Shown piece by piece: positions 10,514-58,601 of a stretch of DNA of 64,000 bases. A program made the position numbers and the translations under genes. Where the stretch lies: positions 82,331-146,330 of IMG/VR virus record IMGVR_UViG_3300005535_000017. The stretch is one strand, 5' to 3'. Positions within the stretch are counted from its first letter, which is position 1. Every line of letters starts with the position of its first letter. Below the pieces are notes generated by a model. The model had not been told where the DNA came from. It searched no databases and worked only from the letters and a program-made list of their open reading frames with translations. The DNA comes from a virus. Taxonomy: Duplodnaviria > Heunggongvirae > Uroviricota > Caudoviricetes.

Positions 10514-13500
10514 TTGACGTCGGATCGTCTTCTGCCTACGCTGGAGGCACTTGGTCGGCCCGGAGATTGCCGTCAGGCAGAGGGCTGCAAGGAGATTATC
10601 GTGGCCGGTACCCCAGCAGAGACCTGGAAGTCCCTCCAAGAGCGTGTCGAGTCAGCAGTGAAGAGCTACTTCCCCTTCGAAGGAAGAGCGAAGAAGTTGG
10701 TTCTTCACAATCTCTCCTTCGATGATAGTGGCGCACCGAGAGATGACATCCGCTCTCAGGAGCAAGCGAAGGATCAGAAGAAGACCTGGGGCGCGAACGT
10801 CTTCGCCGACGTGAGCCTGATCGACAAAGCCACGGGACATGAGCTCGATCGAACCAAGATCAAGGTCATGACTCTCCCCAAGCCCACCAACCGCTACAGC
10901 TACATCGTCGACGGATCCGAGTGGCAGGTGGATAGCCTCTGGCGCCTGCGTTCGGGCGTCTACGCCCACATCAAGCAGAACGGCGAAATGGAGACCGAGT
11001 TCAACCTCGCCAAGCCGTTCGCGGGTAAGCCTCGTATCAAGATCCCGTTCGATCCAGAGTCTCGCAAGTTTCAGTTCCAGTGGGGCACCTATCACCCTCC
11101 GCTCTACTCCGTTCTCAAGGTTCTCGGCGTTCAAGACGAGGATATGAAGAAGGCGTGGGGCGAGGACATCTACAAGGCCAATGTCCCGAAGCACCCGGAG
11201 AAGGACATTGAAGAGCTCTACGCGAAGATCACCAAGAACTCGAAGCAGCAACTGCAAGGCCTAACCTACGACCAGAAGGCCTCTGCCGTTGTTGCCGAGT
11301 TCCACAAGACGGGTTTGTTGCCAGAGATGACGAAGCTCGTCTTCGGCAAGCCGTTCGACCACGTCAACGGGGAAGCTTTGCTGCTGGGCTCGCAGCGGAT
11401 TCTTGGAGTGACCAAGGGCGATATCCCACAGGACGATCGCAACTCACTCGTCTTCAAGACACTGCACGGAACGGACGACTTCCTGCACGAGCAGCTCACC
11501 AAGTCCAAGATGAAGCGGACCCTTGCTGGAAAAGTCGGCAACAACATCGACCGGCAGGATAAGGTTCGCGACATCATCTCCGGCGACCTCTTCAATCGCC
11601 CCATCAAGGAGTTCTTCACGAGCTCCATGCTCTCGAAGAACCCGGAGCAGGTGAACCCGCTCGAGATGATCTCGAATCATCGAGCGACGACGATCATGGC
11701 CGAGGAGGGCGGTATCAAGAAGGAGCAGTCGGTTACGCCCGACATGAAGCTCATCAACCCCTCGCACTTCGGCTATCTCGATCCGATCCACACGCCGGAG
11801 TCGGAGCGCACCGGTATCACTCTGCACTTGCCCATCGGCGTCAAGAAGAGGGGCAACGACCCCATCATGCAGGTCTATGATCTGAAGGCGAAGCAGTTCG
11901 CCAAGGTCACGCCGGCCGAGCTACACCGAGAGAACGTGCTGCTGCCAGATCAGGTCGTCATCAGGGACGGGCGCCCGCATCCGATTGCGGACCTCGTGAA
12001 GATGAAGGACCCGATAACACACGAGATGCTGGAGAAGCCTTTCTCCGAGGCTCGCTACCTCGTTGTTCAGCCCTCGCAGCTCTACGATGAGGCGACCAAC
12101 CTCATCCCGTTCCTGCAGAACAACCAGGGCAACCGCACGATGACCGCGTCCCGCCAGGGCACGCAGGCCGTCTCTCTGCACAATCGCGAGCAGCCTCTCG
12201 TTCAGGTTTTGGCAGGCGGGTCTCAGACCTGGGAGAAGCTCACCGGTCTCGACTGGTCCCACAATGCTCATCACGACGGCAAGGTGGTGGAGATCAAGAC
12301 CAGCAAGGAGAACGGCCACGCTGAGGCTATCGTCATTCAGGACGCGGCCGGCAAGCGACACGAGGAGCAGATCTACAACCACTTCCCGCTCAACGACTCG
12401 AAGACCTTCATCCACTCGACGCCGCTTGTGAAGGTCGGCGATTCGGTGAAGAAGGGGCAGACCCTCGCCGACACCAACTTCACACGGCAGGGCTCTCTGT
12501 CCCTTGGAACGAACCTTCGCGTCGCGTATTTACCGTACAAGGGGTACAACTTCGAGGACGGCATCGTCATCTCCGACTCAGCAGCAAAGAAGCTGACGTC
12601 GGAGCACTTGCACCGTCGGACGCTCGAGACAGATCCCGAGAGGGACGAGATCTCGAAGTCGAGGTTCATCGCCTTCGCCAGCACGATGTCAAAGAAGCTG
12701 ACGAAGGACCAGATGTCCAAGATCGGGACGGACGGTCTGATTCGAGTCGGTCAGCGGGTCGAGCCGGGAGACATCCTCGTTGCAGCAGTGGGCAAGAAGG
12801 ACTACGCCGGCGAGACTGGTCGGTTGATGAGTCGTCTGTCGAAGAAGGCCTTCAATCTCCAAGACCGAAGCGTGGTCTGGGATTCCGACCACCCGGGTGA
12901 GGTGGTGAAGGTCGTCAAGCTCCCGAACAACAAGGGAGCCGTCGTTCACGTCAAGACGCTCGAGTCCGCCGAGGTCGGTGACAAGATCGTCGGCCGACAC
13001 GGCAACAAGGCCATCATCACCCGCATCCTGCCCGACCACGAGATGCCTCGCATCGGTGGCGCAGATGGCCAGCACGTCCAGGTCCTCATGAACCCATCCG
13101 GCGTCCCGACCCGCATCAACCTCGGTCAGATGCTCGAGACAGCCGCCTCGAAGGTCGCCGAGAAGACGGGCAAGCCCTATGTCGTCACCAACTTCGCCGG
13201 GCCGCACGTCGACTACACCAGCAAGGTGAAAGAAGACTTGGCGAAGAATGGCATCAGCGATCAAGAAACGCTCTTCGATCCGACCAACGGCAAGAAGCTC
13301 GGAGACGTACTGACGGGCAATCAGTACATCTTCAAGCTCAAGCACCAGGTCGAGAAGAAGCTCGCCGTCCGAAGCGGAGGTCGACAGGGCGGTGGTTCCT
13401 ACACCGTCGACCACGCTCCCAAGGGCACAGGTGCGGAGCACCCCGGCCAGGGCCTGGGGCAGCTCGAGTTCTACGCTCTGCTCGCTCACGGAGCGCGCCA

Positions 13501-16500
13501 CAACCTTCGCGAGATGGCCACCTACAAGGCCGACCAGCACCTCGGGGACAATCTCGACGACATGAATCACACCGACTTCTGGGATCGCGTCCGCACGGGC
13601 CAGCCGCTGCCGGCTCCTCGCCCGACGTTCGCGTACAAGAAGTTCGAGAACCTGCTCACCGGCCTCGGCGTCAACATCCAGAAGCAAGGCAACGAGCTCC
13701 AGCTCATGCCGTTGACTGACAAGGGCGTGCTCGCTCTCTCGCACGGCGAGATCAAAGACGCTGGTCGCATGCTCCGTGGCAAAGATGCCAAGGAGCTGGA
13801 GAAGGGCCTCTTCGACCCGAAGATCACCGGCGGCCTGCCGGATGACAAGGGCAAGGGACTCTTCTGGTCTCACATCAAGATGGCCGAGCCGGTTCCCAAT
13901 CCGGTGTTCGTCGGCTCGAGCAAGTCGCAGCTCGGCCCGGCCGTCATCCTATCCGGTCTTCGGTATGAAGACTTCGAAGCGGTTGCGAAGGGCAAGAAGG
14001 CCCTGCCCAACGGCGAGACAGGTGGTATCGCAATCAACAATCTTCTCAAGAAGATCGACGTCAAGGCCGAGCTGAAGAAGACGCTCGCTGAGCTCCCGAA
14101 GCTGAAGAAGGACGCGCTCAACAAGGCCAACAAGAAGGCGCGCTACCTCATCGCTCTCGACAAGCTCAACATGAAGCCGCACGAAGCGTACATGATGAAC
14201 TACCTGCCGGTGCTGCCGCCGGCGTTCCGGCCCATTGTTCCGATGCCGGATGGTTCACTGCGCTACGACGACATCAACCAGTACTACCACGCCATCGGTC
14301 TCCTCAACGATCGTCTGAAGAACCCGGTCAAGGAGCTCGGCGGTGCCTCGGAGAGGAACGTCCGCGAGCAGCTCTACGACGCCATGAGGGCCTACGCTGG
14401 CCTCGGTGGGCGTCCGGTCTACGAGTCGAACCGCCCGATGAAGGGCATCCTCGACGTCGTTGCTGGCGATCAGCCGAAGCAAGGCTACTTCCAGAAGCGG
14501 CTCATGAAGCGCCGGCAGGAGCTCTCCATGCGCTCCACCATCATCCCGGAGCCGGCCATGCACCTCGACTACGTGGGCCTACCGAAGGAAGCGGCGATGG
14601 AGCTCTACAAGCCTTTCGTCGTGCGAGAGCTGGGTCAGGTCGGCCTCAACCCGGTCAATGCGCTGAAGGCGGTGAAGGAGAATAGGGACATCGCCTGGAA
14701 GGCGCTCGAGAAGGCGATGGACAAGCGCCCGGTCCTCCTCAAGCGAGACCCGGCTCTGCACAAGTTCTCGATCATGGCCTTCAAGCCGAAGATGGTCGAG
14801 GGCAAGGCCATCCAGATCCACCCGCTGGTCACCGCTGGCTACAACGCTGACTTCGACGGCGACACCATGTCCGTCTTCGTCCCGCTCACGGACGAGGCAG
14901 TCAAGGAGTCCCACAAGATGTTCCCGTCGAACAACCTCTTCAGCTCGACCAGCGGCGACATCATGTACCAGCCGACGCAGGAGTCACTGCTCGGTCTTCA
15001 CCTTCTGACGAAGTGGGGCAAGGAGACTGGTAAGACATTTCCCAACTTCCTCGAAGCACAGAAGGCGAAGGACAGAGGTGCTCTTGGCATGAACGACGTC
15101 TTCACCATCGGTGGCAAGAAGACGACGCTCGGCCGCATGACAATCAATAGCTACTTCCCAGACGGCTTCAAGGCCAACGAGGAACTTCTGCACGACTCGA
15201 AGTTCACGCTCAAGAAGAAGAACGTGAAGCAGCTCCTGGGTAACCTGGCCCGCCAGGACCCGAAGAGCTTCGCCCTCACCGTCGACAAGCTGAAGGACTT
15301 GGGTAACAACTACTCCTACGAAGCGGGGTTCTCCTTCGGTCTGAAGGACCTTGATGTTCAGAAGGGGCTGCGTGATCACATCCTCCACCCCTACGATGTC
15401 GAGGCGGGAAAGATCAGGTCCAGCAAGCTCTCGAAGGAAGAGAAGGACGCCAAGCTGGTGAAGATCTACTCGATGGCGACCGATGAGCTCGAGAAGGAGC
15501 TCCTGCCGCACTTCGAGAAGACGGACAACAAGATCTACACGATGGTGTACTCCGGTGCTCGCGGCTCGACGCCGCAGTTCCGCCAGATCACCATGGCTCC
15601 GATGCTCATGAAGGACGGCGCTGGCGGCACCATCCCCACTCCGGTCAAGAAGAGCTATGCGGAGGGTCTCGACGTCGGTGACTACTGGACGTCTCTCCAC
15701 GGCGCCCGCATGGGTACCCTGCAGAAGGTCGAAGGTACCTCTGAGCCTGGAGCTCTCACCAAAGACGTTGCTAACGTCATGATGCCGACGCTGATCGTCT
15801 CGAACGATTGCGGTACCAAGAACGGCATCACGATGAATGTGGCCGACGTGGAGATCCAGGATCGAGTTCTGGCCAAGGAAGCGAAAGTGGGTAAGCACAC
15901 GCTCGCTCCTGGCACGATCATCACTCCAGAGGTGACGGCAACTCTGCAGAAGCACGGCGTCGACAAGATCATCGTGCGGTCTCCTCTGAAGTGCGCCCAC
16001 GGGCAGGGCCTGTGCGCCAAGTGCTACGGACTCAGTGAGAACGGACACTTCCACGAAGTCGGCACCAACATCGGCGTGATCGCCGGACACGCTCTTGGTG
16101 AGCCAGCGACGCAGCTCGCCATGGACTCGTTCCACACCGGTGGCGTCGCGGCGTCTCGAGGCGCCGGTGCGGTCGACAAGTTCACTCGACTGAACCAGCT
16201 TCTCAATGTCCCCAAGATCCTGTCGCACTCTGCTACCCTATCCACCATGGAAGGGACCGTGTCTCGGATCGAGCACGACAAGGCGACGAACGGTCACTAC
16301 ATCCACATCGGCGGGGAACGGCACTACGTCCCGGCCGTCAACAAGGTCACCGTCGCTGTGGGCGACAAAGTCTTCCCGGGCCACGCGCTGTCGGACGGCC
16401 CCATCAATCCCCGCGAGCTCTTGCCGCTGACCGACATCCACAATGTGCAGAACTACGTCACGAACAGCCTACACAACGATGTGTACAAGGACGAGCACGT

Positions 16501-16870
16501 CAAGCGCCGCAACATCGAGACAGTAGTGCGCTCTCTGACCAACCTCGCTCGCGTCGAGGATCCGGGCGATTCGGCACACCTGCACGGAGACCTCGTCCTT
16601 CGCACTGTGGTGGATGAGCACAACCGCAGCCTGAAGCCCGATGAGAAGCCGATCATCGCAAAGCCAGTTATTCGCTCGGCGGAGCAGGTCGCCCTCGACC
16701 AGCACGAAGACTGGATGGCGCGTCTCAACTTCGAGCGTTTGCGGCAGACCATTCTCGAGGGTGCGTCTCGAGGCTGGAAGAGCAACATCCACGGGCCCAA
16801 CCCCGTTCCCGCCTATGTCTTCGGTGCGGAGTTCGGCAAGGGCACCAAAGAGAATCCGCACCACTACTAA
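10514..16870 (+). CDS. rpoBC: multisubunit DNA-directed RNA polymerase, fused beta / beta-prime subunits in one polypeptide
   Basis: 2118-aa ORF. Beta motifs GDKIVGRHGNKAIITRILP (GRHGNKG) and GQLEFYALLAHGA..LREM (GEMEVWALEAYGAA). Beta C-terminus KKFENLLTGLGVNIQ runs directly into beta-prime. Beta-prime motifs NYLPVLPPAFRPIVP, KRDPALHKFSIMAFKP, NADFDGDTMSVFVPL (catalytic Asp triad) and a bridge-helix-like LHGARMGTLQK. The likely true start is the GTG at 10601, preceded by AAGGAG at 10589-10594; the track start at 10514 has no RBS. Confidence 0.9.
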   Translation: MTSDRLLPTLEALGRPGDCRQAEGCKEIIVAGTPAETWKSLQERVESAVKSYFPFEGRAKKLVLHNLSFDDSGAPRDDIRSQEQAKDQKKTWGANVFADVSLIDKATGHELDRTKIKVMTLPKPTNRYSYIVDGSEWQVDSLWRLRSGVYAHIKQNGEMETEFNLAKPFAGKPRIKIPFDPESRKFQFQWGTYHPPLYSVLKVLGVQDEDMKKAWGEDIYKANVPKHPEKDIEELYAKITKNSKQQLQGLTYDQKASAVVAEFHKTGLLPEMTKLVFGKPFDHVNGEALLLGSQRILGVTKGDIPQDDRNSLVFKTLHGTDDFLHEQLTKSKMKRTLAGKVGNNIDRQDKVRDIISGDLFNRPIKEFFTSSMLSKNPEQVNPLEMISNHRATTIMAEEGGIKKEQSVTPDMKLINPSHFGYLDPIHTPESERTGITLHLPIGVKKRGNDPIMQVYDLKAKQFAKVTPAELHRENVLLPDQVVIRDGRPHPIADLVKMKDPITHEMLEKPFSEARYLVVQPSQLYDEATNLIPFLQNNQGNRTMTASRQGTQAVSLHNREQPLVQVLAGGSQTWEKLTGLDWSHNAHHDGKVVEIKTSKENGHAEAIVIQDAAGKRHEEQIYNHFPLNDSKTFIHSTPLVKVGDSVKKGQTLADTNFTRQGSLSLGTNLRVAYLPYKGYNFEDGIVISDSAAKKLTSEHLHRRTLETDPERDEISKSRFIAFASTMSKKLTKDQMSKIGTDGLIRVGQRVEPGDILVAAVGKKDYAGETGRLMSRLSKKAFNLQDRSVVWDSDHPGEVVKVVKLPNNKGAVVHVKTLESAEVGDKIVGRHGNKAIITRILPDHEMPRIGGADGQHVQVLMNPSGVPTRINLGQMLETAASKVAEKTGKPYVVTNFAGPHVDYTSKVKEDLAKNGISDQETLFDPTNGKKLGDVLTGNQYIFKLKHQVEKKLAVRSGGRQGGGSYTVDHAPKGTGAEHPGQGLGQLEFYALLAHGARHNLREMATYKADQHLGDNLDDMNHTDFWDRVRTGQPLPAPRPTFAYKKFENLLTGLGVNIQKQGNELQLMPLTDKGVLALSHGEIKDAGRMLRGKDAKELEKGLFDPKITGGLPDDKGKGLFWSHIKMAEPVPNPVFVGSSKSQLGPAVILSGLRYEDFEAVAKGKKALPNGETGGIAINNLLKKIDVKAELKKTLAELPKLKKDALNKANKKARYLIALDKLNMKPHEAYMMNYLPVLPPAFRPIVPMPDGSLRYDDINQYYHAIGLLNDRLKNPVKELGGASERNVREQLYDAMRAYAGLGGRPVYESNRPMKGILDVVAGDQPKQGYFQKRLMKRRQELSMRSTIIPEPAMHLDYVGLPKEAAMELYKPFVVRELGQVGLNPVNALKAVKENRDIAWKALEKAMDKRPVLLKRDPALHKFSIMAFKPKMVEGKAIQIHPLVTAGYNADFDGDTMSVFVPLTDEAVKESHKMFPSNNLFSSTSGDIMYQPTQESLLGLHLLTKWGKETGKTFPNFLEAQKAKDRGALGMNDVFTIGGKKTTLGRMTINSYFPDGFKANEELLHDSKFTLKKKNVKQLLGNLARQDPKSFALTVDKLKDLGNNYSYEAGFSFGLKDLDVQKGLRDHILHPYDVEAGKIRSSKLSKEEKDAKLVKIYSMATDELEKELLPHFEKTDNKIYTMVYSGARGSTPQFRQITMAPMLMKDGAGGTIPTPVKKSYAEGLDVGDYWTSLHGARMGTLQKVEGTSEPGALTKDVANVMMPTLIVSNDCGTKNGITMNVADVEIQDRVLAKEAKVGKHTLAPGTIITPEVTATLQKHGVDKIIVRSPLKCAHGQGLCAKCYGLSENGHFHEVGTNIGVIAGHALGEPATQLAMDSFHTGGVAASRGAGAVDKFTRLNQLLNVPKILSHSATLSTMEGTVSRIEHDKATNGHYIHIGGERHYVPAVNKVTVAVGDKVFPGHALSDGPINPRELLPLTDIHNVQNYVTNSLHNDVYKDEHVKRRNIETVVRSLTNLARVEDPGDSAHLHGDLVLRTVVDEHNRSLKPDEKPIIAKPVIRSAEQVALDQHEDWMARLNFERLRQTILEGASRGWKSNIHGPNPVPAYVFGAEFGKGTKENPHHY
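10515..10543 (+). promoter_or_regulatory. possible sigma70-like promoter upstream of the RNAP gene
   Basis: TTGACG (10515-10520), 17-nt spacer, TACGCT (10538-10543), in an AT-richer divergent intergenic region. Weak -10. Speculative. Confidence 0.2.
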
Positions 16871-31526: not shown

Positions 31527-33932
31527 ATGCTCGTCAAGCAGGTTCAGTTCTTCGGCAAGAACGATGAGGGGCAGATCTTCTGCCAGCCCTTGCTCGATGA
31601 CGGCTTGGTAAAGACTGCCTCTGCCTCATCGCGAGCGAACCTGCATCCTCAGATCGCCGACTTCGTCAGGACTGTTCGCCCCAGCAAGCACGGCATCTAC
31701 GTCCTGGTGAACGCCATGGGCGCCGGCGAGATCTGGGGCTCCAACATCAATGGCGACCACTTCCCTGAGAAGGAGCTGATCCACTCTCCGAAGGACTGGG
31801 AGAAGCTTCCCGCCACGCGGATGAAGGAGATCGGCAAGAGCTGGGAGTACGGCTTCCCCACCTTCATGGGGGCGCATCCGTACAAGCACCACGTCAACAA
31901 GGACTCGTCGCGGGCATTCGGCTCGGTCGAGCTCGCCGCGTGGAACCCAAAGATGCATCGCGTGGAGCTGGTGGTCTATCTTGACCGCGAGCTCTGCAAG
32001 CGTTTCGACGCTCAGGATGTGATCGAGAAGATCGAGCGGGGAGAGTTCCCGGACGTCTCAATGGGCTGCAAGGTGCCCTACGACGTCTGCTCGATCTGTC
32101 AGCACCGGTCGAAGACTCCGAAGGACTACTGCCACCACGCGAAGAGCATGATGAATGTCATCCTGCCAGATGGCAGGAAGGTGTTCGTCTACAACCCTCG
32201 CCCTCGCTTCTTCGACATCTCCTTCGTCTTCATCGGAGCCGACAAGACGGCCAAGGTCATGGCCAAGCTTGCGTCAAAGGGCAATCAGGTCTGCATGGGT
32301 GAGTACTGCACCATTCCTCGACTCAGCGTCGATGTTGGTGAGCAGTTCTCGAAGTTCGCCGGTGAGCAAGACCCTACGGCCCCGCTTCGTGAGGAGCATC
32401 CTACCTGGCTCGGCAATCACCAGGACGGGATGTACGACCCGACCTTCAACGACTTCATCGGCAACAAGTCTCGTACTCAGATCATTCAAGAGACGAAAGC
32501 TGCCAAGCCGGCATTCGAGGCGCGGCTCTATCCTCCGGCTCAGCTCGAGGCAAATGAGTCGTATGACGCGCTCGTCAACCTCGACGCTGCTCGTGAGAAG
32601 ACAGCTTCAGTCAAGACGGCCAATGACCCAATTCAGAAGTTCATCCACGTCCAAGGCATCCCGATCATGCTGGAGTGGTTGAAGGGTCAGACGCGTAAGT
32701 ACTACTCAAAGGCCGATCCTTCAAAGGTGACCTACCAGAAGCTGATGAAGGCCGATTACGGCTACATCCCAGCGACCGTAGATGCCGATGGCGAGCAGCT
32801 CGATGTCTATGTGGGGCCGAGCCGCGATTCAGAGTTCGTCTTCATGATCAATCAGCTCAAGGACGACGGCTCGTTCGATGAGCGAAAGGTCATGATCGGC
32901 TATCGCGATGAGGCGGCGGCAAAGAAGAGCTATCTCGACCATATGCCTGAAAGGCGTCTTGGGCAGGTGTCGAGGACGACAATGGGTGAGTTCAAGAAGA
33001 CCCACCTTGTCAGTGCTCGAAAGGCACGCAAGACCCGCGATGCCGAGGCAGTGAAGATCGCGTCAGCGACGTGCGGATGCCACGGACTTGGAGATGATTG
33101 CGGCGGTACGGCTGAGAAAGTCGCGCACGCCGTCTTTCCAGGTACGCGTAATTCTGAAAAATCCGCTTCCCATAGGAAGCTGAGTGAGATCATAAAAACA
33201 ATACCGGCAGGTCCTTTTTCGAAAGAGACATTGCCAAGACTGGAGAAAGGGGAGAGCTCGATCCCAAACAAGGCGCTGGACGAGATGGGCAAAATGGATC
33301 TTACCGAAGCCCTCTCAACCCCCGCTATGATGGGCATCGTTCTTAAGCCCCATGAGTTTCAGAGGGTGATGCTGGTGCGAATCGGAGAGAAGCCGCTGGC
33401 GGATGAACTCGACAGGAAGGGGGAGGTCTTCGGGCCTTCTTCGGACGTCGACGAGTCCCTGCAGGTGAATCCCGATCGCATCGATCGTGCTCTCAAAGAC
33501 CTCCTTCAGGCTCTGGGCATGGTGGGTGAGCGGTCAGTAGCCGCCACTCCTCTTGCTCGTCGAATGGAGCGTCTTGAAGCACGCCGTGCCGATCCGCGGA
33601 AGAGCGTCGAGAAGACCGCCTCCGCCGATCCCCTCATGAAGAAGCTGTCAGCCGCCTACAACGGCTACCGGCGCAGCATCGTGAAGAAGGCCACCGCCAT
33701 CCAGAAGTTCCTCGTCTCCGACCCCCAGCTCGCTCCCGAGTCATTCGGTAGCAGCATGGTGCAGGCCTTCGCCGGTGGGGTCGACAAGACGGCCAGCTCG
33801 AGCGTGTTCAGCCCCGACTCGCTCGCATACCTGACCGGGGCGCACCACACGGACCGGGCCATCCATATCGCCGATCAAGGCGTTCGGGTGTCCCTCGCCC
33901 AGACGGGCGCACTCGCAGAGGCGCTGTACTAG
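31527..33932 (+). CDS. putative prohead maturation protease-domain protein (HK97 S78-like N-terminal domain) with long C-terminal extension
   Basis: 801 aa. The N-terminal 230 aa carry S78-like landmarks in order: GIYVLVNAMGAG...NGDHF, HPYKHHVNKDSSRAFG (HxD...G), and VSMGCKV (cf. lSiGf catalytic Ser motif). Positioned upstream of scaffold-like and capsid genes. Confidence 0.4.
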   Translation: MLVKQVQFFGKNDEGQIFCQPLLDDGLVKTASASSRANLHPQIADFVRTVRPSKHGIYVLVNAMGAGEIWGSNINGDHFPEKELIHSPKDWEKLPATRMKEIGKSWEYGFPTFMGAHPYKHHVNKDSSRAFGSVELAAWNPKMHRVELVVYLDRELCKRFDAQDVIEKIERGEFPDVSMGCKVPYDVCSICQHRSKTPKDYCHHAKSMMNVILPDGRKVFVYNPRPRFFDISFVFIGADKTAKVMAKLASKGNQVCMGEYCTIPRLSVDVGEQFSKFAGEQDPTAPLREEHPTWLGNHQDGMYDPTFNDFIGNKSRTQIIQETKAAKPAFEARLYPPAQLEANESYDALVNLDAAREKTASVKTANDPIQKFIHVQGIPIMLEWLKGQTRKYYSKADPSKVTYQKLMKADYGYIPATVDADGEQLDVYVGPSRDSEFVFMINQLKDDGSFDERKVMIGYRDEAAAKKSYLDHMPERRLGQVSRTTMGEFKKTHLVSARKARKTRDAEAVKIASATCGCHGLGDDCGGTAEKVAHAVFPGTRNSEKSASHRKLSEIIKTIPAGPFSKETLPRLEKGESSIPNKALDEMGKMDLTEALSTPAMMGIVLKPHEFQRVMLVRIGEKPLADELDRKGEVFGPSSDVDESLQVNPDRIDRALKDLLQALGMVGERSVAATPLARRMERLEARRADPRKSVEKTASADPLMKKLSAAYNGYRRSIVKKATAIQKFLVSDPQLAPESFGSSMVQAFAGGVDKTASSSVFSPDSLAYLTGAHHTDRAIHIADQGVRVSLAQTGALAEALY

Positions 33933-39260: not shown

Positions 39261-40037
39261 TTGGAGATGTCGTACAAGCTGAAGAACACGGCACTCGACC
39301 ACGACAAGCGCTTCCTTCACCGCAAGGCTTCCAAGATGCAAATGGAGCCAGTCATTGGCGGCCGTCGTCTGCGCATTCGCCAGTCGATGGTCATCAGTGA
39401 CGAGCTCTTCGAGCACAACAGGGCCAACCTCGAGCTGTGGAACAAGTGGGGTGTGGTCTCTTGGGAGAAGGTCGGTGGGGAAGGCGGTCGGAGGGTCCCG
39501 ACGAAGGAAGAAGTCATGGCGGCTGGCTACTCGGAAGAGGCCGCCGAGTCGATCATCGAGCGGGAGAAGCGGCTTGCCGCCGAAGAGGCTGCTGCTCCCA
39601 AGGAGACTCTGTCCGAAGGCGGGCTCCTCTCGCCGCAGCCGGGCGAGTTCGATGTCTGGGTGGGCGAAGTGGGCACCAACCAGATCGGCGTGGTGAAGGC
39701 TCTTCGTGAGAGCACTCAGCTCTCAATCAAGGAGGCAAGCGACCTTCTCGGCATGGCTCCTGTGATCGTGCTGGGAGGTGTCGACGAAGCTGCGGCCACC
39801 AAGCTCGCCCAGTCCTTGGTCGATGCCGGAGCCAAGGCCAGCGTGCAGAAGAGCGGGACAGCGCCGCAGCCCTCGCTGATCCCCGAGACGCTCGTGCCCG
39901 AGAACTACACTCCGACGCCGGAATCGAAGCCGTCCGAGGATGCCTCGAGCCTCTTCTCAGAGCCGTCGCAAGCGGAGACGACTCGCGTCGAGACCAAGCC
40001 GCAGGCGCAGCCCAAGAACCCGAAGAGCAAGAAGTAA
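39261..40037 (+). CDS. protein containing a ribosomal bL12 (L7/L12) C-terminal domain fused to novel N- and C-terminal regions
   Basis: 258 aa. Residues about 128-200 GEFDVWVGEVGTNQIGVVKALRESTQLSIKEASDLLGMAPVIVLGGVDEAAATKLAQSLVDAGAKASVQK align with E. coli L7/L12 CTD [69 protein letters not shown]. No L10-binding NTD. Pro/Ser/Glu-rich tail. Confidence 0.8.
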   Translation: MEMSYKLKNTALDHDKRFLHRKASKMQMEPVIGGRRLRIRQSMVISDELFEHNRANLELWNKWGVVSWEKVGGEGGRRVPTKEEVMAAGYSEEAAESIIEREKRLAAEEAAAPKETLSEGGLLSPQPGEFDVWVGEVGTNQIGVVKALRESTQLSIKEASDLLGMAPVIVLGGVDEAAATKLAQSLVDAGAKASVQKSGTAPQPSLIPETLVPENYTPTPESKPSEDASSLFSEPSQAETTRVETKPQAQPKNPKSKK

Positions 40038-50959: not shown

Positions 50960-51177
50960 TCTCTCCGCGGCGGTAGGCCTCCAGCCCGGAGAGATGGCGC
51001 CTCGTCCGGCCAGCCCGTCGGACGAGGCCCCTCTTTTGCAGAGGGAAGCAGGTAAGGAAGGTGCAGGGATGCCTACCCAGCAGAGCAGTGTGAAGGACGA
51101 GGAGGCGGTGTCGGAGCTGGTGTCCTACGTGGAAAGCGTTCACCGGCGCGTCAAGGAACGCAGGCAGAAGGTGAAGG

Positions 51178-51729: not shown

Positions 51730-51731
51730 AT

Positions 51732-52034: not shown

Positions 52035-53630
52035 TTACTCGGTTGCGGGGTAGATGCACATCACGAAGTCGCCGGGATGGCTGTCGATCTTGACCGTCTG
52101 TATGTTGCCATCGTTGAACTGCAGGAGGTCCTGGTAGCGGCCTTCGGGGTCGTTGGTCGGCTGCTGCTCTCCATTCACATTCTGCACTTTGATGAGGACG
52201 GCGTAGAAGGTGATTCCGTCGAGATAGACGACACCGTGGAAGTTGTCCTCGCCCTCCATCGGATGCAGCTCTCCGAAGCGGAAGCCGCCCGCGGTCGGGA
52301 GATGCCGGCGATGGAAGTTGGCCTGCCGGTCGTGCCCGACGCTGGTGCTGTTCAGGTACTGCAGGTAGCCAGGCGACTCGGACCGCTTGAGCTCGTCGAG
52401 CTGCTCGAGCAGGCCGCGTTGGCGAGACTTCAGCCGCAGCGCCTCCTCCTTAGGATGGTCTTGGAAGTTCATCTCATTGAGCTGTCCGATGAGGGCCATT
52501 GCAGCTCGGGCGAGCCCAGTGATTGCGGCTTCTTGTAGTCGATGCTTGCCGAGATCGAGCTCCGACAACTCCTTGGAGATGGGGCACATCAACTTGCCTC
52601 GAGGAAAGCCGTTCTCGTCGGTGACGACACTGTCGAGAACCTTGTCGGGTTCGAAATTGGAGCGCTTCATCTCCTCTTCGCTGAAGAGACAGGGAACAGC
52701 CGTGATCTTCTTTCTGGTGCTCGTCTCGTTCTGAGAGTACTGACGCTTGAGTGGGCGAAGGTCTTCGGCGAAGCCCGGCGTCTTGGCCGCCTTGCGGAAC
52801 CCGTTGCGGTCTGGGTCGTGGTCTGGGTGAGGGCAGGTCATGGTGTCTCCGTTCTTCTCTGCAGCGCTCATGTAGTACCTCGCTTGTGGGAATGCGTCGT
52901 CGAATTGCTTGAGGAGACGAGTCGCCTGCTCGATCGGTCTACGCTTCCTCTCCTCTTCCATCGCCGCATAGGTGTTGTCGAGCACCTGGATGAAGAGCGC
53001 GGCTTTGCCCTCTTCGATGTAGACCTCGAAGTCTTCTTGATCCGGCTCGTCTGAGACGTGGAAGCCAGCGCCGTGCATGGCGCGCCACACCTCGTTGTTG
53101 GCCCCGCGATAGCCGATCCAAGTATAGGCGTCGTCATTCTTGGGCAGGCCGTGCCCGCAGCCGCACTCTCGTCGGTGAGCGAGCTCGGCGTCGATCGACC
53201 CTTGGAATCGATAGTGGCCGCAGTCTGAGCACATGTCGATGTGCATGCCGCAGGGAATGCCGAGGACAGCCTCGTTGTGCGGGTTATCCCCGCCTTCGTG
53301 GCGATTGTCCATGTGGAGCCAGCCGACACTGCCGCATTCGCAGAGCTCGAAGGATTGGGAAAGCTCATCCTTCCTGCAACGCCAGAAGAACTTCGGCCTG
53401 CCACCGAGGTGTCGAGTGACTCTTTGAAGAGCCATGCTGTCACCACAGACGTTGCAACTGGGGCGAGGAACAGCGACGGTGGCATTGCACTCATCACACT
53501 TGAGCGCGGTGACCTGGCAGTAACCACCACCCATCAAAACCGTATACGATGAGTAGTGCTTCATGGGTCCGTGTCGACGGCACACGGGTCCATCCTTGGC
53601 GGGCATGAAAGCCCGCTGCTCCTCAACCAT
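52035..53630 (-). CDS. hypothetical Cys-rich protein with N-terminal zinc-ribbon-like motifs (531 aa)
   Basis: C..C pairs CDEC, CNVC, CECG, CSDCGH, CGCGH. Last gene of the minus-strand block. Confidence 0.55.
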   Translation of the reverse strand: MVEEQRAFMPAKDGPVCRRHGPMKHYSSYTVLMGGGYCQVTALKCDECNATVAVPRPSCNVCGDSMALQRVTRHLGGRPKFFWRCRKDELSQSFELCECGSVGWLHMDNRHEGGDNPHNEAVLGIPCGMHIDMCSDCGHYRFQGSIDAELAHRRECGCGHGLPKNDDAYTWIGYRGANNEVWRAMHGAGFHVSDEPDQEDFEVYIEEGKAALFIQVLDNTYAAMEEERKRRPIEQATRLLKQFDDAFPQARYYMSAAEKNGDTMTCPHPDHDPDRNGFRKAAKTPGFAEDLRPLKRQYSQNETSTRKKITAVPCLFSEEEMKRSNFEPDKVLDSVVTDENGFPRGKLMCPISKELSELDLGKHRLQEAAITGLARAAMALIGQLNEMNFQDHPKEEALRLKSRQRGLLEQLDELKRSESPGYLQYLNSTSVGHDRQANFHRRHLPTAGGFRFGELHPMEGEDNFHGVVYLDGITFYAVLIKVQNVNGEQQPTNDPEGRYQDLLQFNDGNIQTVKIDSHPGDFVMCIYPATE

Positions 53631-53644
53631 GTTGTCCTCCTGAT

Positions 53645-54007
53645 TTAGGCGGCGGGTGCTACGCAGTACTTCTCGACGAAGGGCATGACCTGAGATACGA
53701 ACGGCTTCTGCACATAGCCGTCTGCGCTCTTGTTGCTGACGAGATCGACTGAGCCGGTGAAGACGATTACGGGGATGGCTTTGAGGCGGGGATCGATGTC
53801 GCGGAAGATCAGGAACTCTTCTCCGTTCATCACCGGCATCGAGTAGTCGAGAAGGATGAGCTCTGGTCTCTCGTTCTCGTCATCGGTGAGATAGGCCAGG
53901 GCGTCTCTTCCATTCTGTTCGCCCCATGCCTCGTAGCCAGAACTGCGGAGCATGTCGATCAGGACCTGGCGGACGGAGTCGTCATCATCAACGACCAGGA
54001 TCATCAC
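53645..54007 (-). CDS. stand-alone response-regulator receiver (CheY-like REC) domain protein
   Basis: 120 aa. ILVVDDDDSVR (acidic pocket), LILLDYSMPVMNG (phospho-acceptor Asp), VIVFTG (Thr/Ser), YVQKPF (Lys). No output domain. Confidence 0.8.
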   Translation of the reverse strand: MMILVVDDDDSVRQVLIDMLRSSGYEAWGEQNGRDALAYLTDDENERPELILLDYSMPVMNGEEFLIFRDIDPRLKAIPVIVFTGSVDLVSNKSADGYVQKPFVSQVMPFVEKYCVAPAA

Positions 54008-54072
54008 GTACCCCCAGTAGGGATGTTGCGCTAGTCAAAGACTGTATCACGTCGGTTTTCGCGTGTCGACGA

Positions 54073-54507
54073 TTACCCTATTTTCGCCTCCGGCAGCCAA
54101 GTGTTCCGTGACCACAGGTAGTTGCGGTACTCGGTCAAACTCTGCACTGGTCGCTGAACGCTTGGTGACACTGGGATCATTGGTGGCCGGAGATGGCGCT
54201 TCCACCGCTTGAAGTCCCGGACTCGCTTCCTGATGTAGCCTCGCAGCGTCTTGGACCAGCAGACGTCGCACCAGCCGCGGTCCGGCGTGTAGCCGCGTCC
54301 CATGTCCTCGTACTCGGCTTCGCCGATGAGGTGCTTCATCTCGTCGCAGTCATCGCAGCCCCTGCACCAGGGAGTGCGGCGAGATCCTCGATGATGGGAG
54401 CTGATGCAGATGAAAGTGAGGCAGGGTACTTCGTGTCTGCAGCCGCGTGCGCGGATGCGGTTCTCAGTTAGCTCAACGCCGTACACGTCCCTTCCTGGTA
54501 GCAACAC
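54073..54507 (-). CDS. hypothetical Cys/His-rich protein (144 aa)
   Basis: CRHEVPC, HH, CRGCDDCDE, CDVC. Possibly a zinc-finger or HNH-like nuclease. Unresolved. Confidence 0.45.
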   Translation of the reverse strand: MLLPGRDVYGVELTENRIRARGCRHEVPCLTFICISSHHRGSRRTPWCRGCDDCDEMKHLIGEAEYEDMGRGYTPDRGWCDVCWSKTLRGYIRKRVRDFKRWKRHLRPPMIPVSPSVQRPVQSLTEYRNYLWSRNTWLPEAKIG

Positions 54508-54736
54508 GTTTCACCCCCTTGGCTGCGACACGCTTGCGAATGAGGATGTAGCGGCACGTCGGTCCGCGGCTCGGCTCCGTCGTGATGACGTAGCCGTCTT
54601 TCCGCAGGTCGTAGATCCTCGCCGGGGATCGCCTCCCGCACTTCTTGATCAACGCCTGCACAGGCACTCCTTTTGCTCCGCCCTTCTCGAGCAGAGACAA
54701 AACAGAGGCCTTCTTGGACAACGTATCTTTGCTCAT
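54473..54736 (-). CDS. small basic protein, possible winged-helix DNA-binding protein (87 aa)
   Basis: LSLLEKGGAKGVPVQALIKKCG...IYDLRKDGYVI pattern with an Arg/Lys-rich tail. Confidence 0.4.
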   Translation of the reverse strand: MSKDTLSKKASVLSLLEKGGAKGVPVQALIKKCGRRSPARIYDLRKDGYVITTEPSRGPTCRYILIRKRVAAKGVKRVATRKGRVRR

Positions 54737-54769
54737 CCTCCACTCCCTCTTATCTCACGATGATGGTCA

Positions 54770-56959
54770 CTATCCTCTCGACCGCAAATACTTCTCAAAA
54801 TTCTGAATCACCAGATTCTGAAGTACGCGGTCGACAGAATTCTCGTCATCTCGAGAAGAGGCATTACGCCAGAAGCGAGGAGGTCCGAACATCTTCCTGC
54901 ATTCCTGATCGTCGATGCCGCCGTCGATAACCAAGGTGTACACGTTCACACCTCTCTGCCGCGCCCATTGGATCTCCTTCATTACATACTGCTGAAGGAC
55001 CCAGGTGGGGAGGCCTTGTCCACTGCTCTTCGCGCTGCACGGCGATCCATCTGTCAGCAGGAAGAGGTATTTCGCCATTCCAGGGGACATCTGAGTCAGC
55101 AGGTATCGAGAAGCGACGCGGATCGCCGAGTGCATTGGGGTCAGGCCACCACACTCGACTGGGATTGAGTAATTCTTGCCGGCCGGCTTTGCAGAGCCCA
55201 AGTAGCCCTCGCATTCGCGGTCCCAGCGGTAGATCCAGACCTGACCACTTCTGTCGTATTTTCCACCCTCTCCGCCTCTGAATCCCCAGCGCCGGCCATC
55301 AACGAAGGGGAAGCGAAGAGAGCGTCGGAGCATCTCTCCCGCATGCATTACTTGGTAAAGCCGCTCACCGTCCATCGAGCCGGACATATCGCAAAGGGTG
55401 AGATATCCGAACCCTTGGTTGTTCATATCCTGCTCGAAGATCGAACTGTCATTCGGCTCGATAGCGAACTGAATCGCTGAGTCGACGTCGATGCTGACCC
55501 CGCTCTCGTTGCGCTGCATCTTCTGCCTACCGAGAGTCCTGAAGAAGACGCTGCGCATTCTCTCGACCGCTTCGAGCTCTTTCTCCTTCAGTGCGACCTT
55601 CGAGCGGATGTTCTCCGGCTTCACGTCGATGAAGAGAATCTTCGCCTTGGCGTCGGCCATGAGCTGGCTATCGGGAGAGACTTGCGTCATCCCATCGCGG
55701 AAGCTGTCGATTGCCTGTTGCATGTCCCCATCGATTTGACCGATGTCCTCATCGGTCGGGATAGCGCCGTCGACGTCCTGGAAGACCTGGGCGATTGCCG
55801 ACCGCACGGCGTCGGGCACCGTGGTCATGTCGACTTTGTCGGGAAGGGGATGGTTCTCTTGCTCGTCGAACTGAGTCGAGTGGCGGATCAGAGAGCTGAG
55901 AGCATTGCTCACCTGTGACGCGTCGGGGACGGGTACATCGCCTGTCCCCTGGTCGTGTGGCTCGGAAGCACTGGCTGATTGCGACGCTCCATCGGGAACG
56001 CTGCCTCCAGCTTGTCCCTGATCACTTGCTCCTCCGGCATCTCCTGGGGTGCCAGACGAAGCTCCGGCTCCGGCACTGCCCGCTTGGGCCTGCTGCGCAT
56101 CTTGTCCTCCTTGTTGTGGCTGTTGTGGTGCCTGCGAAGGAGGGGGAGGATGCATCTCTTCGAGCAGTTTGTCTAGACACTGATTCAGGGCAAGGCGGGC
56201 GACGACGAGGGATCGCTGGTATCCCTTGTACCGGATGTGGTGCATGCCCCATTCGATGCAAGGCCGAAGAGGCTCAAAAGGTCCATCTGATACGGTAGGA
56301 GTTCCAAGCGCAACGGCGAAGAGAAAGGCGATGAAGTTCTCGCTGTTGGCTTCTGCTCCTCGACTATTAGAAATACGCGTCCATCGTCTCCAAATTCGAT
56401 CCGCAGAGCCGGGGTAGAGAAGCTCCCAAAGAGAATTGCAGCGAATATCATCGAAGGCGTTGAGGACGTAGAAAAGGAATCTTTCGAGTTGCGCAGGATC
56501 AACATGTGGCGCCTTCTGCTTGAGTTCGTGGACCCAAGGCGCGAGGAAGAGCTTCGCAGTCTTGGGGTCCGTCTTGAAGAGAATGTGCTGCCATTCGTGC
56601 TCGAACCCAAGGTAACCCTGCTCAGCTCCGCAAGTCATGCACGAGAGTGTATCGCCGGGCAGTACGTCGAGCTTGCCCTCCCACTCGTGTCCGCAGGCGA
56701 GTCGGTAGGTATGCCGTCCTCGTGATTCGCCGAGCAGCTCCACCACCTCTTGGTCGATCGGATCGGCGAACTTCACCCAGATGGTGGAGGTGCAGTCCGT
56801 CTGATTCTGATGACCCTCCTGCACCCTGATGTCCTTCTTGTAGGCCCGCTTGAATGTATCGTTGGTGCGATAGATCGGGTTCTTGTCGATCGGAGCCTCA
56901 TAGTGTCGATTTGGTGGAGGAGACTTGCCACCAGAAACATAGTAAGAGCTGTTCGCCAC
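54770..56959 (-). CDS. von Willebrand factor A (vWA) domain protein, CobT-like
   Basis: 729 aa. MIDAS motif LTLCDMSGSMDGER (DxSxS) in the C-terminal third. Long acidic, Gln-rich middle. Sits three genes downstream of an AAA+ ATPase gene. Confidence 0.7.
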   Translation of the reverse strand: MANSSYYVSGGKSPPPNRHYEAPIDKNPIYRTNDTFKRAYKKDIRVQEGHQNQTDCTSTIWVKFADPIDQEVVELLGESRGRHTYRLACGHEWEGKLDVLPGDTLSCMTCGAEQGYLGFEHEWQHILFKTDPKTAKLFLAPWVHELKQKAPHVDPAQLERFLFYVLNAFDDIRCNSLWELLYPGSADRIWRRWTRISNSRGAEANSENFIAFLFAVALGTPTVSDGPFEPLRPCIEWGMHHIRYKGYQRSLVVARLALNQCLDKLLEEMHPPPPSQAPQQPQQGGQDAQQAQAGSAGAGASSGTPGDAGGASDQGQAGGSVPDGASQSASASEPHDQGTGDVPVPDASQVSNALSSLIRHSTQFDEQENHPLPDKVDMTTVPDAVRSAIAQVFQDVDGAIPTDEDIGQIDGDMQQAIDSFRDGMTQVSPDSQLMADAKAKILFIDVKPENIRSKVALKEKELEAVERMRSVFFRTLGRQKMQRNESGVSIDVDSAIQFAIEPNDSSIFEQDMNNQGFGYLTLCDMSGSMDGERLYQVMHAGEMLRRSLRFPFVDGRRWGFRGGEGGKYDRSGQVWIYRWDRECEGYLGSAKPAGKNYSIPVECGGLTPMHSAIRVASRYLLTQMSPGMAKYLFLLTDGSPCSAKSSGQGLPTWVLQQYVMKEIQWARQRGVNVYTLVIDGGIDDQECRKMFGPPRFWRNASSRDDENSVDRVLQNLVIQNFEKYLRSRG

Positions 56960-56968
56960 GGGATACTC

Positions 56969-57469
56969 CTACTTGACGACTGGACCATAAACATGAAACG
57001 CCACCGCTCCCATTTCCAGTAGGAAGCTGCCGAGATATGGGAGAGCGTAGGAGAACTTCTTTCCAACAACGTTCGTGTCCTCCTCTTCCGGCACCGTGCC
57101 TCCCGTCGGGATGACGTGATAGGTGTATGGCACGAGATTTCTATCGTTGGCGTCCACTTCTGCCCAGATCGAGACGTGCTCCTTCGGCACGGCGTAATTG
57201 CCCATGATCTTCGTCTGTGGATGAATGCCGCGGACGACGACGGTCTTGATGCGCCCGCTAATTCTGCGCACCACCGCGCCTCTCGGCATCTTGACGATGG
57301 CGGTGTAGGCCTTGAGCTCTCCAGTGAGCTCGCGGCGCTGCATCTCTTCTTCAGAACCGCCGAGCGGGAAATCGAACTCCTCGATCGTTTTCATTCTTCC
57401 TCTCCCTTTCTGAAGTCCGAATACGTGCCGTCGCAGTAGCGCCAGCCGCTGATCTTGCATCGAACGCAC
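56969..57469 (-). CDS. hypothetical protein (166 aa; may start at internal Met)
   Basis: Between the AAA+ and vWA genes. Overlaps the upstream 77-aa ORF. Confidence 0.4.
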   Translation of the reverse strand: MRSMQDQRLALLRRHVFGLQKGRGRMKTIEEFDFPLGGSEEEMQRRELTGELKAYTAIVKMPRGAVVRRISGRIKTVVVRGIHPQTKIMGNYAVPKEHVSIWAEVDANDRNLVPYTYHVIPTGGTVPEEEDTNVVGKKFSYALPYLGSFLLEMGAVAFHVYGPVVK

Positions 57470-57624
57470 TTCACGAAGGCAGCGGCATCATCAGGGCCAG
57501 CACCGCCGCGGAGTATCTTCTCTCTGAAGCTGTGCCAGCCGTTGTCGCAGAACCACAGACCAATGCGCTGCCATCTCGTGAGACGCGTCTGAGCAGAGGC
57601 GGCGCTCTCACGATAGGGGTTCAC
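57391..57624 (-). CDS. hypothetical small Cys-containing protein (77 aa)
   Basis: Coupled to the AAA+ gene (overlap 57621-57624). Confidence 0.3.
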   Translation of the reverse strand: MNPYRESAASAQTRLTRWQRIGLWFCDNGWHSFREKILRGGAGPDDAAAFVKCVRCKISGWRYCDGTYSDFRKGEEE

Positions 57625-58601
57625 TTGCCGTCCCAGAACTCAGTGACCGTGGCGCCCTTGAAGATGGAGCCCACCCGGGCCAGGGCGGTCTTCCTCTCCT
57701 CGCCCTCGTATTTGCACACCAGCATTTGAAGCGCAGGCTTCAGTCCGTTGGTGCGAACCGTCTGCAGCGTACGGACGATGTCTCGAGTGGAGAGGGCGTA
57801 GCCGATCGCCTTCTGCCTCGACTCCTTGGCGAATCGAAGCATCAGATCGGTGATGTCTTCCATCGCCGCATCCATCTGACCGAGATTGGCGCGGATGATC
57901 TGCTTCTCGTATTCGGTGGGCGGGTAGTCCGTCTCGATCTCGCTCATGCGAGACTTCAGATCCTCGTTGAGATCGTAGGTGCCTCCGTACACCGACGGAT
58001 TCATCGTCCCGGTGAACCACACCGTGCAGCCCTGGTTGAGTCGGAAGGTCTGCCCAAGAGAGTCCACTTCCACCGCGCGCTCTTGCAGGACGCCGTTGAG
58101 CATCTTCTGCGACTGCGGAGTGAGGGCATTGAACTCCTCGAAGAGCAGGATGCACCTGCCGACTTCATTGGCGATGCGGATTGCCTTCGGCAGACCAGAG
58201 AGCACGAACTTCGTCTCTCGCCCCACCAGGACATATCGCCCGATGAGCTGCAAGTCCTTGGTGTTCTCTGAGCACTCCACCACGACGAGTGGGATGCGCC
58301 AGGCGAAGGCTGCGGCTCGAATCGAGAGAGACTTCCCGTTGCCCTTCGGTCCCTTCAGCAAGAGATTGCCGTGGTCCTGAAAAGCGAGAGCTTGATACTG
58401 CGGCATCAACCCGAAGACGTCGACGAAGGGGACGGTCTGGTTGACCAAGAGCTCTGATGCAGGTGTGCAGATGATGGGGATGTGTTTCTCGTCGGCATGA
58501 GCCGACCGTTGGATCTCTCCTCGTGAGTAAAGGGATTCGATCAGCGCAGTCTTCTGATCAGCCGGCAGTCCATCGAGCCATTGGTTCCACGGATTCGACA
58601 T
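57621..58601 (-). CDS. AAA+ ATPase, MoxR/CobS-like (AAA_5 type)
   Basis: 326 aa. Walker A LLLKGPKGNGKS. Walker B CILLFEEFNAL. Arginine-finger region downstream. Confidence 0.7.
   Translation of the reverse strand: MSNPWNQWLDGLPADQKTALIESLYSRGEIQRSAHADEKHIPIICTPASELLVNQTVPFVDVFGLMPQYQALAFQDHGNLLLKGPKGNGKSLSIRAAAFAWRIPLVVVECSENTKDLQLIGRYVLVGRETKFVLSGLPKAIRIANEVGRCILLFEEFNALTPQSQKMLNGVLQERAVEVDSLGQTFRLNQGCTVWFTGTMNPSVYGGTYDLNEDLKSRMSEIETDYPPTEYEKQIIRANLGQMDAAMEDITDLMLRFAKESRQKAIGYALSTRDIVRTLQTVRTNGLKPALQMLVCKYEGEERKTALARVGSIFKGATVTEFWDGK

Follow-up and report, generated by a model that had tools for sequence, protein, structure and literature searches.

A stand-alone receiver protein and a multi-zinc-finger protein encoded directly downstream of it constitute a constant gene pair in a small clade of jumbo phages. 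The pair was analysed in a stretch of virus DNA of 64,000 nucleotides (the window), which corresponds to positions 82,331 to 146,330 of IMG/VR virus record IMGVR_UViG_3300005535_000017. The receiver, referred to here as REC, is the product of a minus-strand open reading frame (ORF) at 53645-54007, and the gene that follows it encodes a protein of 531 amino acids (aa), which we call the partner. At least the C-terminal module of the partner follows REC in seven of the seven phage lineages compared. REC retains its catalytic residues, and no kinase is found in the phage DNA examined. Our favoured reading, to which we assign a rough probability of 0.4, is that this orphan, catalytically complete receiver and the downstream zinc-finger protein form a two-gene phospho-switch, which these soil phages have kept and which host kinases or acetyl-phosphate would feed.

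The original prediction, made from the sequence of the window, placed a CheY-like receiver in a four-gene phage device together with the 531-aa protein, a 144-aa Cys/His protein and an 87-aa basic protein, and suggested that the device siphons phosphoryl groups from host two-component systems or reports host state. All four ORFs are confirmed on the minus strand (Table 1). The proposed device stands in part: REC and the 531-aa gene are constantly paired, but a unit of all four genes is not conserved, as the 144-aa gene is variable and the 87-aa gene belongs with genes upstream. The conserved unit is REC and its zinc-finger partner, probably with a promoter or operator of their own.

Identity of the receiver

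REC is a genuine single-domain receiver. It matches the Pfam Response_reg profile (PF00072) with 57.5 bits (E 1.8e-15), well over the cutoff of 30.2, and the match covers profile positions 1-103 of 111. The sequence strings LLDYSMP, VIVFTG and QKPF, on which the receiver assignment was originally based, are present. We aligned REC with nine database homologues and with E. coli CheY. In this alignment, the acidic pocket, phospho-acceptor aspartate, threonine and lysine that had been predicted are all in place, REC residues D7/D8, D54, T84 and K101 corresponding to CheY D12/D13, D57, T87 and K109. D7/D8, D54 and K101 are invariant in CheY and the nine homologues, so that the phospho-acceptor is retained on careful alignment, and the position of T84 is occupied by T or S. 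Y98 stands at the position of CheY Y106, the aromatic switch residue.

The eight available phage copies of REC align without gaps, and the catalytic residues are kept in all of them, with T84 replaced by Ser in one lineage (L009). Also invariant among the eight are the active-site loops, β3, β5 and a C-terminal PxVEKxC motif. Among contigs that are 98-99.5% identical to the window, REC carries 17 synonymous and 4 non-synonymous substitutions, a ratio that shows purifying selection, and REC is therefore maintained as a protein. Translation probably starts at the ATG at 54004, because this codon is aligned with the start codons of the relatives, lies ~6 nucleotides (nt) past GGGGG and has the better spacing to the G-rich ribosome-binding site. 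The protein would then have 119 aa, and the residue numbers used here would shift by one.

An AlphaFold2 (AF2) model of REC has a predicted local distance difference test score (pLDDT) of 87 and a predicted template modelling score (pTM) of 0.83, and presents the full (βα)5 order, β1-α1 through β5-α5. The receiver fold in this model occupies the protein up to residue 114 of 120, in agreement with the predicted absence of an output domain. With Foldseek, the model superimposes on RR468 with a template modelling score (TM) of 0.84-0.86 and a root-mean-square deviation (rmsd) of 1.4-1.8 Å, and it superimposes too on DivK, Spo0F, PhoB and FrzS. Helix α4 is short (residues 87-91), with ~5 residues fewer than in RR468 and CheY, and the closest bacterial homologues of REC are alike in this respect.

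The description of REC as CheY-like is correct in a generic sense, but REC is not a CheY equivalog. Orthology to CheY is ruled out by its scores against the NCBIfam models PRK10610 (37.9 bits, where 189 are required) and CheY_Halo (33 versus 200), and no che or flagellar-switch domains are present in the window proteins scanned or in related loci. REC attains none of the NCBIfam equivalog cutoffs, and scores far under them also rule out DivK, CpdR and RssB orthologues. Nor is REC a pseudo-receiver, as every catalytic residue is retained; proteins of that class usually lose some phosphotransfer residues (PMC12632262).

Search for a phosphoryl donor

No HisKA, HATPase_c or Hpt domain was detected with Pfam in 40 window proteins, a set that includes nearly every gene of at least 200 aa. 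Precomputed Pfam annotations list no kinase domain in the 10 kb past each window edge, where one side carries primase, DnaB, UDG and helicase genes and the other ~25 small unannotated genes. We also built a kinase hidden Markov model (HMM) from four bacterial kinases and ran it on all six-frame ORFs. It yielded 0 matches in 215 kb of phage DNA, a partly redundant set that comprises the window with its flanks and five lineages related to it. As a positive control, the same HMM found kinase-like ORFs within 6 kb of REC homologues in 52 of 80 cellular loci (65%). This contrast, between phage copies without a nearby kinase and the 65% of cellular relatives that have one, is newly described here.

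The claim that no histidine kinase is nearby therefore holds for the window proteins scanned, for 20 kb of additional flanking sequence and for the related phage loci. Classical two-component systems have a kinase or Hpt protein encoded near the receiver, and neither is encoded in the DNA examined, which is ~84 kb of a genome of >200 kb. An intact receiver that is borne by a phage, is under purifying selection and has no kinase in reach is a plausible acceptor of host-derived phosphoryl groups.

Relatives and origin of the receiver

The only close homologues of REC are in related phages and share 56-67% identity with it. In cellular genomes, the best matches share 35-43% identity with REC; most are from Myxococcota, followed by Acidobacteriota and Chloroflexota, and the first two phyla are weak leads to the host. 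Two of the cellular homologues were viewed in their genomic context, and both are single-domain receivers encoded directly after a kinase gene, in one case a PAS kinase/hybrid kinase and in the other a bacteriophytochrome kinase. Such an arrangement among the nearest cellular relatives fits a kinase-fed ancestor. Together with the restriction of close homologues to phages, it makes the REC gene a branch of the kinase-coupled single-domain regulators that has long resided in phages, and not a recent capture. A tblastn search with REC against phage records returned only matches of <40% identity, and many of these records resemble bacterial contigs, with annotations such as NtrC, CheA and PhoB.

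The zinc-finger partner

The partner gene starts 14 nt past the REC stop codon and has its own ribosome-binding site (AGGAGG-N5-ATG). The spacing between the two genes is 14-19 nt where it was measured. The lineages compared are the window phage (with L002-L004 and L093), L009/L010, L011, L012, L098, L099 and L001. In all except L001, the gene directly downstream of REC encodes the partner. In L001, a relative on a 210-kb contig, the corresponding region (10380-11780) contains a partner gene with two in-frame stops and loss of Cys ligands in the N-terminal two-thirds, but the C-terminal 167 aa form an intact and well-conserved ORF. The gene may have been truncated naturally so that only the C-terminal module is left, or the assembly may be faulty at this place. 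The possibility that L001 has no partner was considered and rejected, since tblastn and translation reveal the gene with its decayed N-terminal part.

The partner contains 18 Cys and 22 His residues. It had been described as rich in zinc ribbons, and zinc-ribbon-like Cys/His pairs are indeed present, although all CxxC, CxxH and CxC pairs are confined to residues 17-160. Four parts can be distinguished, which are N-terminal zinc-ribbon-like pairs, a CxC/CxxC cluster, a variable helical middle with a coiled-coil-like QLNEMxFxD…SRRR segment, and a β-rich C-terminal domain. The cluster reads CxC/CxxC-GxxGWLHM … CxxC … AExxHRxECGCGHGLP. In an alignment of 12 sequences, the Cys and His positions of the N-terminal pairs and of the cluster vary little or not at all. 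This GWLHM/CGCG module (positions 53136-53350 of the window, minus strand) also stands alone in proteins of 87-125 aa (P0079 and P0112), with the pattern C.C.G.GWLHM … C..C … F … A…H…C.CG, and does not correspond to a known family.

The partner belongs to a rare family. A word-indexed search recovered five clusters, and a second such search, with a 12-sequence profile, led to these five proteins again. When 1.84 billion proteins were screened exhaustively with a profile, 14 partner representatives were obtained at E<=1e-30, and a metagenome scan contributed extra fragments only. None of the four parts has a match in Pfam, PHROG, NCBIfam, PADLOC or PDB sequences, and Pfam likewise returned nothing for 10 members of the family.

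The C-terminal domain of ~80 aa has a wider distribution than the remainder of the protein. In the partner it carries the motif …VNGEQQP.NDP…GD[YF]V.CIYP, and it matches ~90 further clusters (formed at 50% identity; P0026-P0115), most of which are proteins of 70-130 aa made up of the domain alone. The family consensus is …G.HH..FI.V.d.dG.Q.AV.DP..R..D…TV.vPG..G.YV…P. No relative of the domain is found in Pfam or, by comparison of its profile with PDB sequences, in PDB, and PHROGs returned nothing for 43 domain proteins. A relationship to DUF7352, which occurs in a neighbouring protein, was ruled out (hhalign probability 0.3%). We regard the domain as a candidate new domain family. The GWLHM/CGCGHGLP zinc cluster and the 80-aa domain, alone in ~90 protein clusters, are two uncharacterised modules that domain databases could take up.

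One residue of the cluster, His152 in AExxHRxEC, is a candidate phosphodonor. If the partner, or some other phage protein, were a non-canonical donor to REC, the phage would possess a self-contained phosphorelay. H152 does form part of an invariant AE..HR sequence in what is predicted to be a helix, and >100 kb of the genome lies outside the sequence examined. However, neither the partner nor any of the genes examined matches an ATP-binding kinase domain or Hpt, and H152 resides within the Cys/His cluster, where a role in binding zinc is the simpler explanation. Moreover, the N-terminal region that bears H152 is lost in L001, where REC persists. We therefore consider such a phosphorelay highly improbable.

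The gap upstream of the pair

An untranslated gap of 60-100 nt precedes REC in every lineage; the other genes of the block abut or overlap. The gap contains the sequence TG-n-TAnnnT, which resembles an extended -10 element and is present in six of six lineages despite varying flanking bases. A Shine-Dalgarno site follows. A consensus scan of the gap gives TCGACA-17-TACAGT with an upstream TG. The conserved motif may be a promoter or operator that serves the REC-partner pair alone. We also considered whether the motif is a general phage promoter and rejected this idea, as no other intergenic region of the window contains TGATAC. A conserved "GTAAT" in the same region corresponds to the upstream stop codon.

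A possible phospho-switch

In the two-gene phospho-switch that we favour, transcription of the REC-partner pair would start at the promoter-like element in the gap. As the search for a phage kinase was negative, we propose that REC is phosphorylated on Asp54 by a host histidine kinase, a host Hpt protein or acetyl-phosphate. Phosphorylation would flip the T84/Y98 switch and remodel the α4-β5-α5 face, and the altered face would change the binding of REC to the partner. The most likely site of contact is the C-terminal module of the partner, because this is the part that always stays beside REC. The partner would then deliver the output, possibly by binding nucleic acids or proteins via its zinc fingers. 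The net effect would be a response regulator that is split into two polypeptides and couples a phage function to the signalling or metabolic state of the host. A more specific version, in which host kinases phosphorylate REC and REC, through the zinc-finger partner, gates phage development, for example transcription by the fused β-β′ RNA polymerase of this phage, is doubtful.

Several observations weigh against the switch. The ~84 kb examined are less than half of the genome, and a phage kinase may be encoded elsewhere in it. REC is fused to a partner domain in 0 of 106 family members, and the adjacency of the two genes may reflect co-expression alone. The AF2 model of the partner is poor (pLDDT 47, from an alignment of 5 sequences), a Foldseek search with it returned nothing at E<=0.001, and the protein has no fold or family match that would point to an output. 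The partner also diverges much faster than REC, with ~29-35% identity to the window copy versus 56-67% for REC, and such divergence is at least as compatible with an arms-race protein as with a conserved effector.

The lack of a REC-partner fusion and the intact REC of L001, where most of the partner has decayed, fit the main rival reading, in which REC is a phosphate sink or decoy. REC alone would then drain one or more host kinases or Hpt proteins and silence a two-component response harmful to the phage, which could be a stress, developmental or motility programme or a phosphorelay defence such as Detocs, and the protein encoded downstream would have an unconnected function. The intact acceptor site and the failure to find a phage kinase are also compatible with a sink. 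There is a precedent in DtcB, a stand-alone receiver proposed to be a phosphoryl "buffer" in Detocs defence (bioRxiv 10.1101/2023.01.24.525353), and phage interference with host two-component systems is known, for example by the protein PIT4 (PMC10714779). Nevertheless, a pure sink has no need of the partner module that accompanies REC in every lineage, and stoichiometric draining would require high expression and fast dephosphorylation. PADLOC makes no defence-system assignment for REC, which matches only PDC-M60B and SduA (E ~2e-3 to 4e-3); no Dtc-named model matches it, the presence of a DtcB model in the library being unconfirmed. The literature searched shows no phage interceptor of phosphotransfer, including any directed against Detocs. 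We consider a sink somewhat unlikely, and the obligate pairing with the partner somewhat favours an output-bearing switch.

Neighbouring genes

The four ORFs are the downstream end of a co-oriented block that starts with genes for an AAA_5 ATPase, a DUF7352 protein and a 729-aa protein (Table 1). The block meets plus-strand genes head-on, and these end at 52034.

Table 1. Positions of the receiver, its partner and other features in the window
Feature	Position	Strand	Evidence
Receiver (REC), 120-aa ORF	53645..54007	-	Pfam, CheY alignment, AF2, Foldseek, substitution counts
Partner protein, 531 aa	52035..53630	-	Directly downstream of REC; rare family
Partner residues 1-165, zinc-ribbon-like pairs C17/H20, C45/C48, C59/C62, C85, then cluster	53136..53630	-	12-sequence alignment
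Partner C-terminal domain, β-rich, ~80 aa, residues 445-531	52038..52298	-	Profile matches
Untranslated gap upstream of REC	54008..54072	-	Extended -10-like motif TG-n-TAnnnT at 54049-54041
144-aa Cys/His-rich basic protein	54073..54507	-	Homology to L009, GC3, substitutions
87-aa basic protein, pI 11.4, probable winged helix	54473..54736	-	HTH_39, phrog_4973 1e-6
729-aa protein, invariant HExxH (H121-H125) and C-terminal VWA with MIDAS DxSxS (524-528)	54770..56959	-	Pfam
DUF7352 protein	56969..57469	-	Pfam 37.3 bits; syntenic in all relatives
AAA_5 (MoxR/CobS-like) ATPase	57621..58601	-	Pfam AAA_5 55.1 bits, phrog_249 4e-23
Collagen triple-helix repeat protein, 286 aa	58728..59588	-	60.6 bits
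Fused RNA polymerase, 2118 aa, β then β′	10514..16870	+	Rpb2_6 208 bits
801-aa protein with PF18823 "InPase" domain	31527..33932	+	105 bits, residues 371-492
258-aa protein with ribosomal protein L7/L12 C-terminal domain	39261..40037	+	47.6 bits, residues 130-195

The 144-aa ORF was predicted to encode a Cys/His protein, and it is a real gene as judged by its homology in L009, its G+C content at third codon positions (GC3, 0.74) and its substitutions (8 synonymous and 3 non-synonymous). The product has 8 Cys, 5 His and an isoelectric point (pI) of 9.5. It is 51% identical over 140 aa to the product of a 170-aa gene in L009, and the Cys and His residues shared by the two are C23, H25, C29, C34, H38, H39, C48, C51, C80 and C83. 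The gene occurs in two lineages only, those of the window phage and L009. The others have an unrelated gene of 99-110 aa in this slot, and L009 has both. Near-identical contigs carry an 88-aa gene call for this ORF, which we reject because the homology to L009 spans the full length. An HNH-like reading of the Cys/His motif has no profile support and is not claimed, and a profile of the 144/170-aa pair finds nothing significant among PDB sequences.

The 87-aa protein is very basic, in line with the prediction, and conserved, but its assignment as a winged helix is borderline. The HTH_39 match is exactly at the cutoff (21.3 bits for both) and aligns only residues 36-55, and a profile of the family finds no match among PDB sequences. 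The protein is among the most conserved of the block, with 62-63% alignment identity across lineages (up to 72% in local tblastn matches) and 82% mean column identity. Its gene groups upstream with the MoxR/VWA genes, and the variable gene and the untranslated gap lie between it and REC.

The AAA_5 ATPase falls below every NCBIfam equivalog cutoff. The 729-aa protein scores 23.7 bits against Pfam VWA, where the cutoff is 23.8, and its relative in L009 matches VWA_2. HEWQH (121-125) and the MIDAS motif DMSGS (524-528) are invariant in this protein over five lineages. A pair consisting of a MoxR protein and a vWA-metallopeptidase has been described for jumbo phages, with a proposed role in virion assembly (PMC7824862). 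The AAA_5 ATPase and the HExxH/MIDAS VWA protein match this pair, with the DUF7352 gene between them. DUF7352 appears to be a constant third member beside the MoxR/VWA genes. Just upstream of the AAA_5 gene, the gene for a collagen triple-helix repeat protein is also kept in relatives.

The location of REC in a co-oriented block with these candidate assembly genes raises the question of whether it is an adaptor or assembly factor that works independently of phosphorylation, in the manner of the CpdR and RssB protease adaptors or as a regulator of the MoxR/VWA proteins, with an acidic pocket that binds only metal. The shortened α4 suggests an atypical output face, and REC has weak NCBIfam similarity to the RssB and CpdR receivers. 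These similarities are, however, far under the cutoffs, and a variable gene and an untranslated gap intervene between REC and the MoxR/VWA genes. The residues of phosphoryl chemistry, including T84, K101 and Y98, are retained in the eight phage copies, which is unexpected if phosphorylation is irrelevant. An adaptor of this kind is thus improbable.

The phage

Contigs that carry the same genes as the window are 0.2-1 Mb in length, and one relative resides on the 210-kb contig mentioned above; the window is therefore from a jumbo phage. The names of contigs and samples, which are the only basis for this assignment, suggest an origin in soil or rhizosphere metagenomes. Phage hallmarks in the window include a large terminase (phrog_675, 1e-60), a class II ribonucleotide reductase and an SNF2 helicase. 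RNase HII, a C39 peptidase and a 2118-aa fused β-β′ RNA polymerase are also encoded. No phage in INPHARED has a near-identity match to positions 50000-62000 of the window. Neither the 729-aa protein nor the 87-aa family had relatives in scans of IMG/VR, and the clade appears to be absent from this collection.

The RNA polymerase is multisubunit in type and is encoded by one ORF, in which β precedes β′. Rpb2 domains 3, 6 and 7 occupy residues 378-1009 and Rpb1 domains 1-5 occupy residues 1177-1992. In a JGI contig, the gene is called at 2089 aa. The ribosomal protein L7/L12 C-terminal domain is encoded in the structural-gene region. PHROG matches of the 801-aa "InPase" protein are minor head, virion structural and DarB-like proteins. 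Past the right edge of the window, a further ~10 kb (positions 1-10000 of L100/L101) contain ~25 co-oriented small genes of 48-187 aa without any Pfam match, a run of genes that is typical of an early or host-takeover region.

Comparison with known systems

Phages sense their hosts via quorum-sensing receptors and peptide systems, and block host two-component systems by means of small inhibitors. In the literature searched, we found no phage protein demonstrated to accept phosphoryl groups from host kinases and no phage receiver or single-domain regulator that has been characterised experimentally. The locus described here is a clean test case, as a catalytically complete orphan receiver, which is under selection, and a fixed partner are kept over several uncultured soil jumbo-phage lineages. 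If REC is one more annotated phage receiver without a phenotype, the finding is ordinary; if phosphotransfer from host to phage holds, it is clearly interesting. A pair fed by host kinases would give phages a direct biochemical channel to read or drain host signalling, and eavesdropping by direct phosphotransfer would make REC and its partner the first response regulator split across the virus-host boundary.

Virus-encoded receivers as such are already catalogued, and include four PHROG families, stand-alone phage receivers in BFVD and the hybrid kinases of giant viruses. What is new is the strict pairing of REC with an uncharacterised multi-zinc-finger protein, and the definition of the partner family and of its free-standing C-terminal domain. 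The PHROG families that REC matches (731, 5982, 20458 and 8810) are labelled "unknown function", and phrog_731 is matched at 6e-16. REC shares the canonical fold with other viral receivers (Foldseek E 7e-7 to 1e-5, TM ~0.8), such as A0A6C0R1B8 of Alteromonas phage vB_AmeM_PT11-V22 in BFVD, and some of these are also stand-alone. Their identity to REC is only 17-27%, and REC therefore represents an independent lineage. The receivers of eukaryotic viruses, such as those of phaeoviruses and giant viruses, are unlike REC in that most of them bear the annotation of histidine kinases or hybrid kinase-regulators. The pairing with the zinc-finger protein was seen only in the clade of REC.

Another receiver-fold protein of jumbo phages, cREC, likewise occurs without a histidine kinase (Iyer et al. 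2021). However, cREC is a divergent type of receiver with links to NAD+/ADP-ribose enzymes, whereas REC is a classical receiver by its Pfam score and is not adjoined by NAD/ADPr genes. cREC entries in BFVD match the REC model weakly, with E 1e-2 to 7e-2 and TM of only 0.4-0.6, and we have ruled out that REC is a cREC. DtcB of Detocs resembles REC in design, in that it is a stand-alone receiver without output and is proposed to absorb phosphoryl groups. Yet DtcB is host-encoded, in an operon with the kinase DtcA and the effector DtcC, whereas REC is phage-encoded, has no kinase that we could find and has a different conserved neighbour.

The bacterial single-domain regulators, among them RR468 of Thermotoga, DivK, Spo0F and the phytochrome regulators Rcp1, RcpA and RcpB, have the same catalytic residues as REC, lack an output domain and share its fold (Foldseek TM 0.8-0.86, rmsd 1.4-2.6 Å). 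A REC profile matches RR468 at 1e-26 and RcpA at 6e-24. REC differs from these proteins in the absence of ~5 residues at the start of α4 and in its conserved VEK[YF]C end. It differs also in its setting, as it is borne by a phage with no kinase in reach, and a zinc-finger gene is always downstream.

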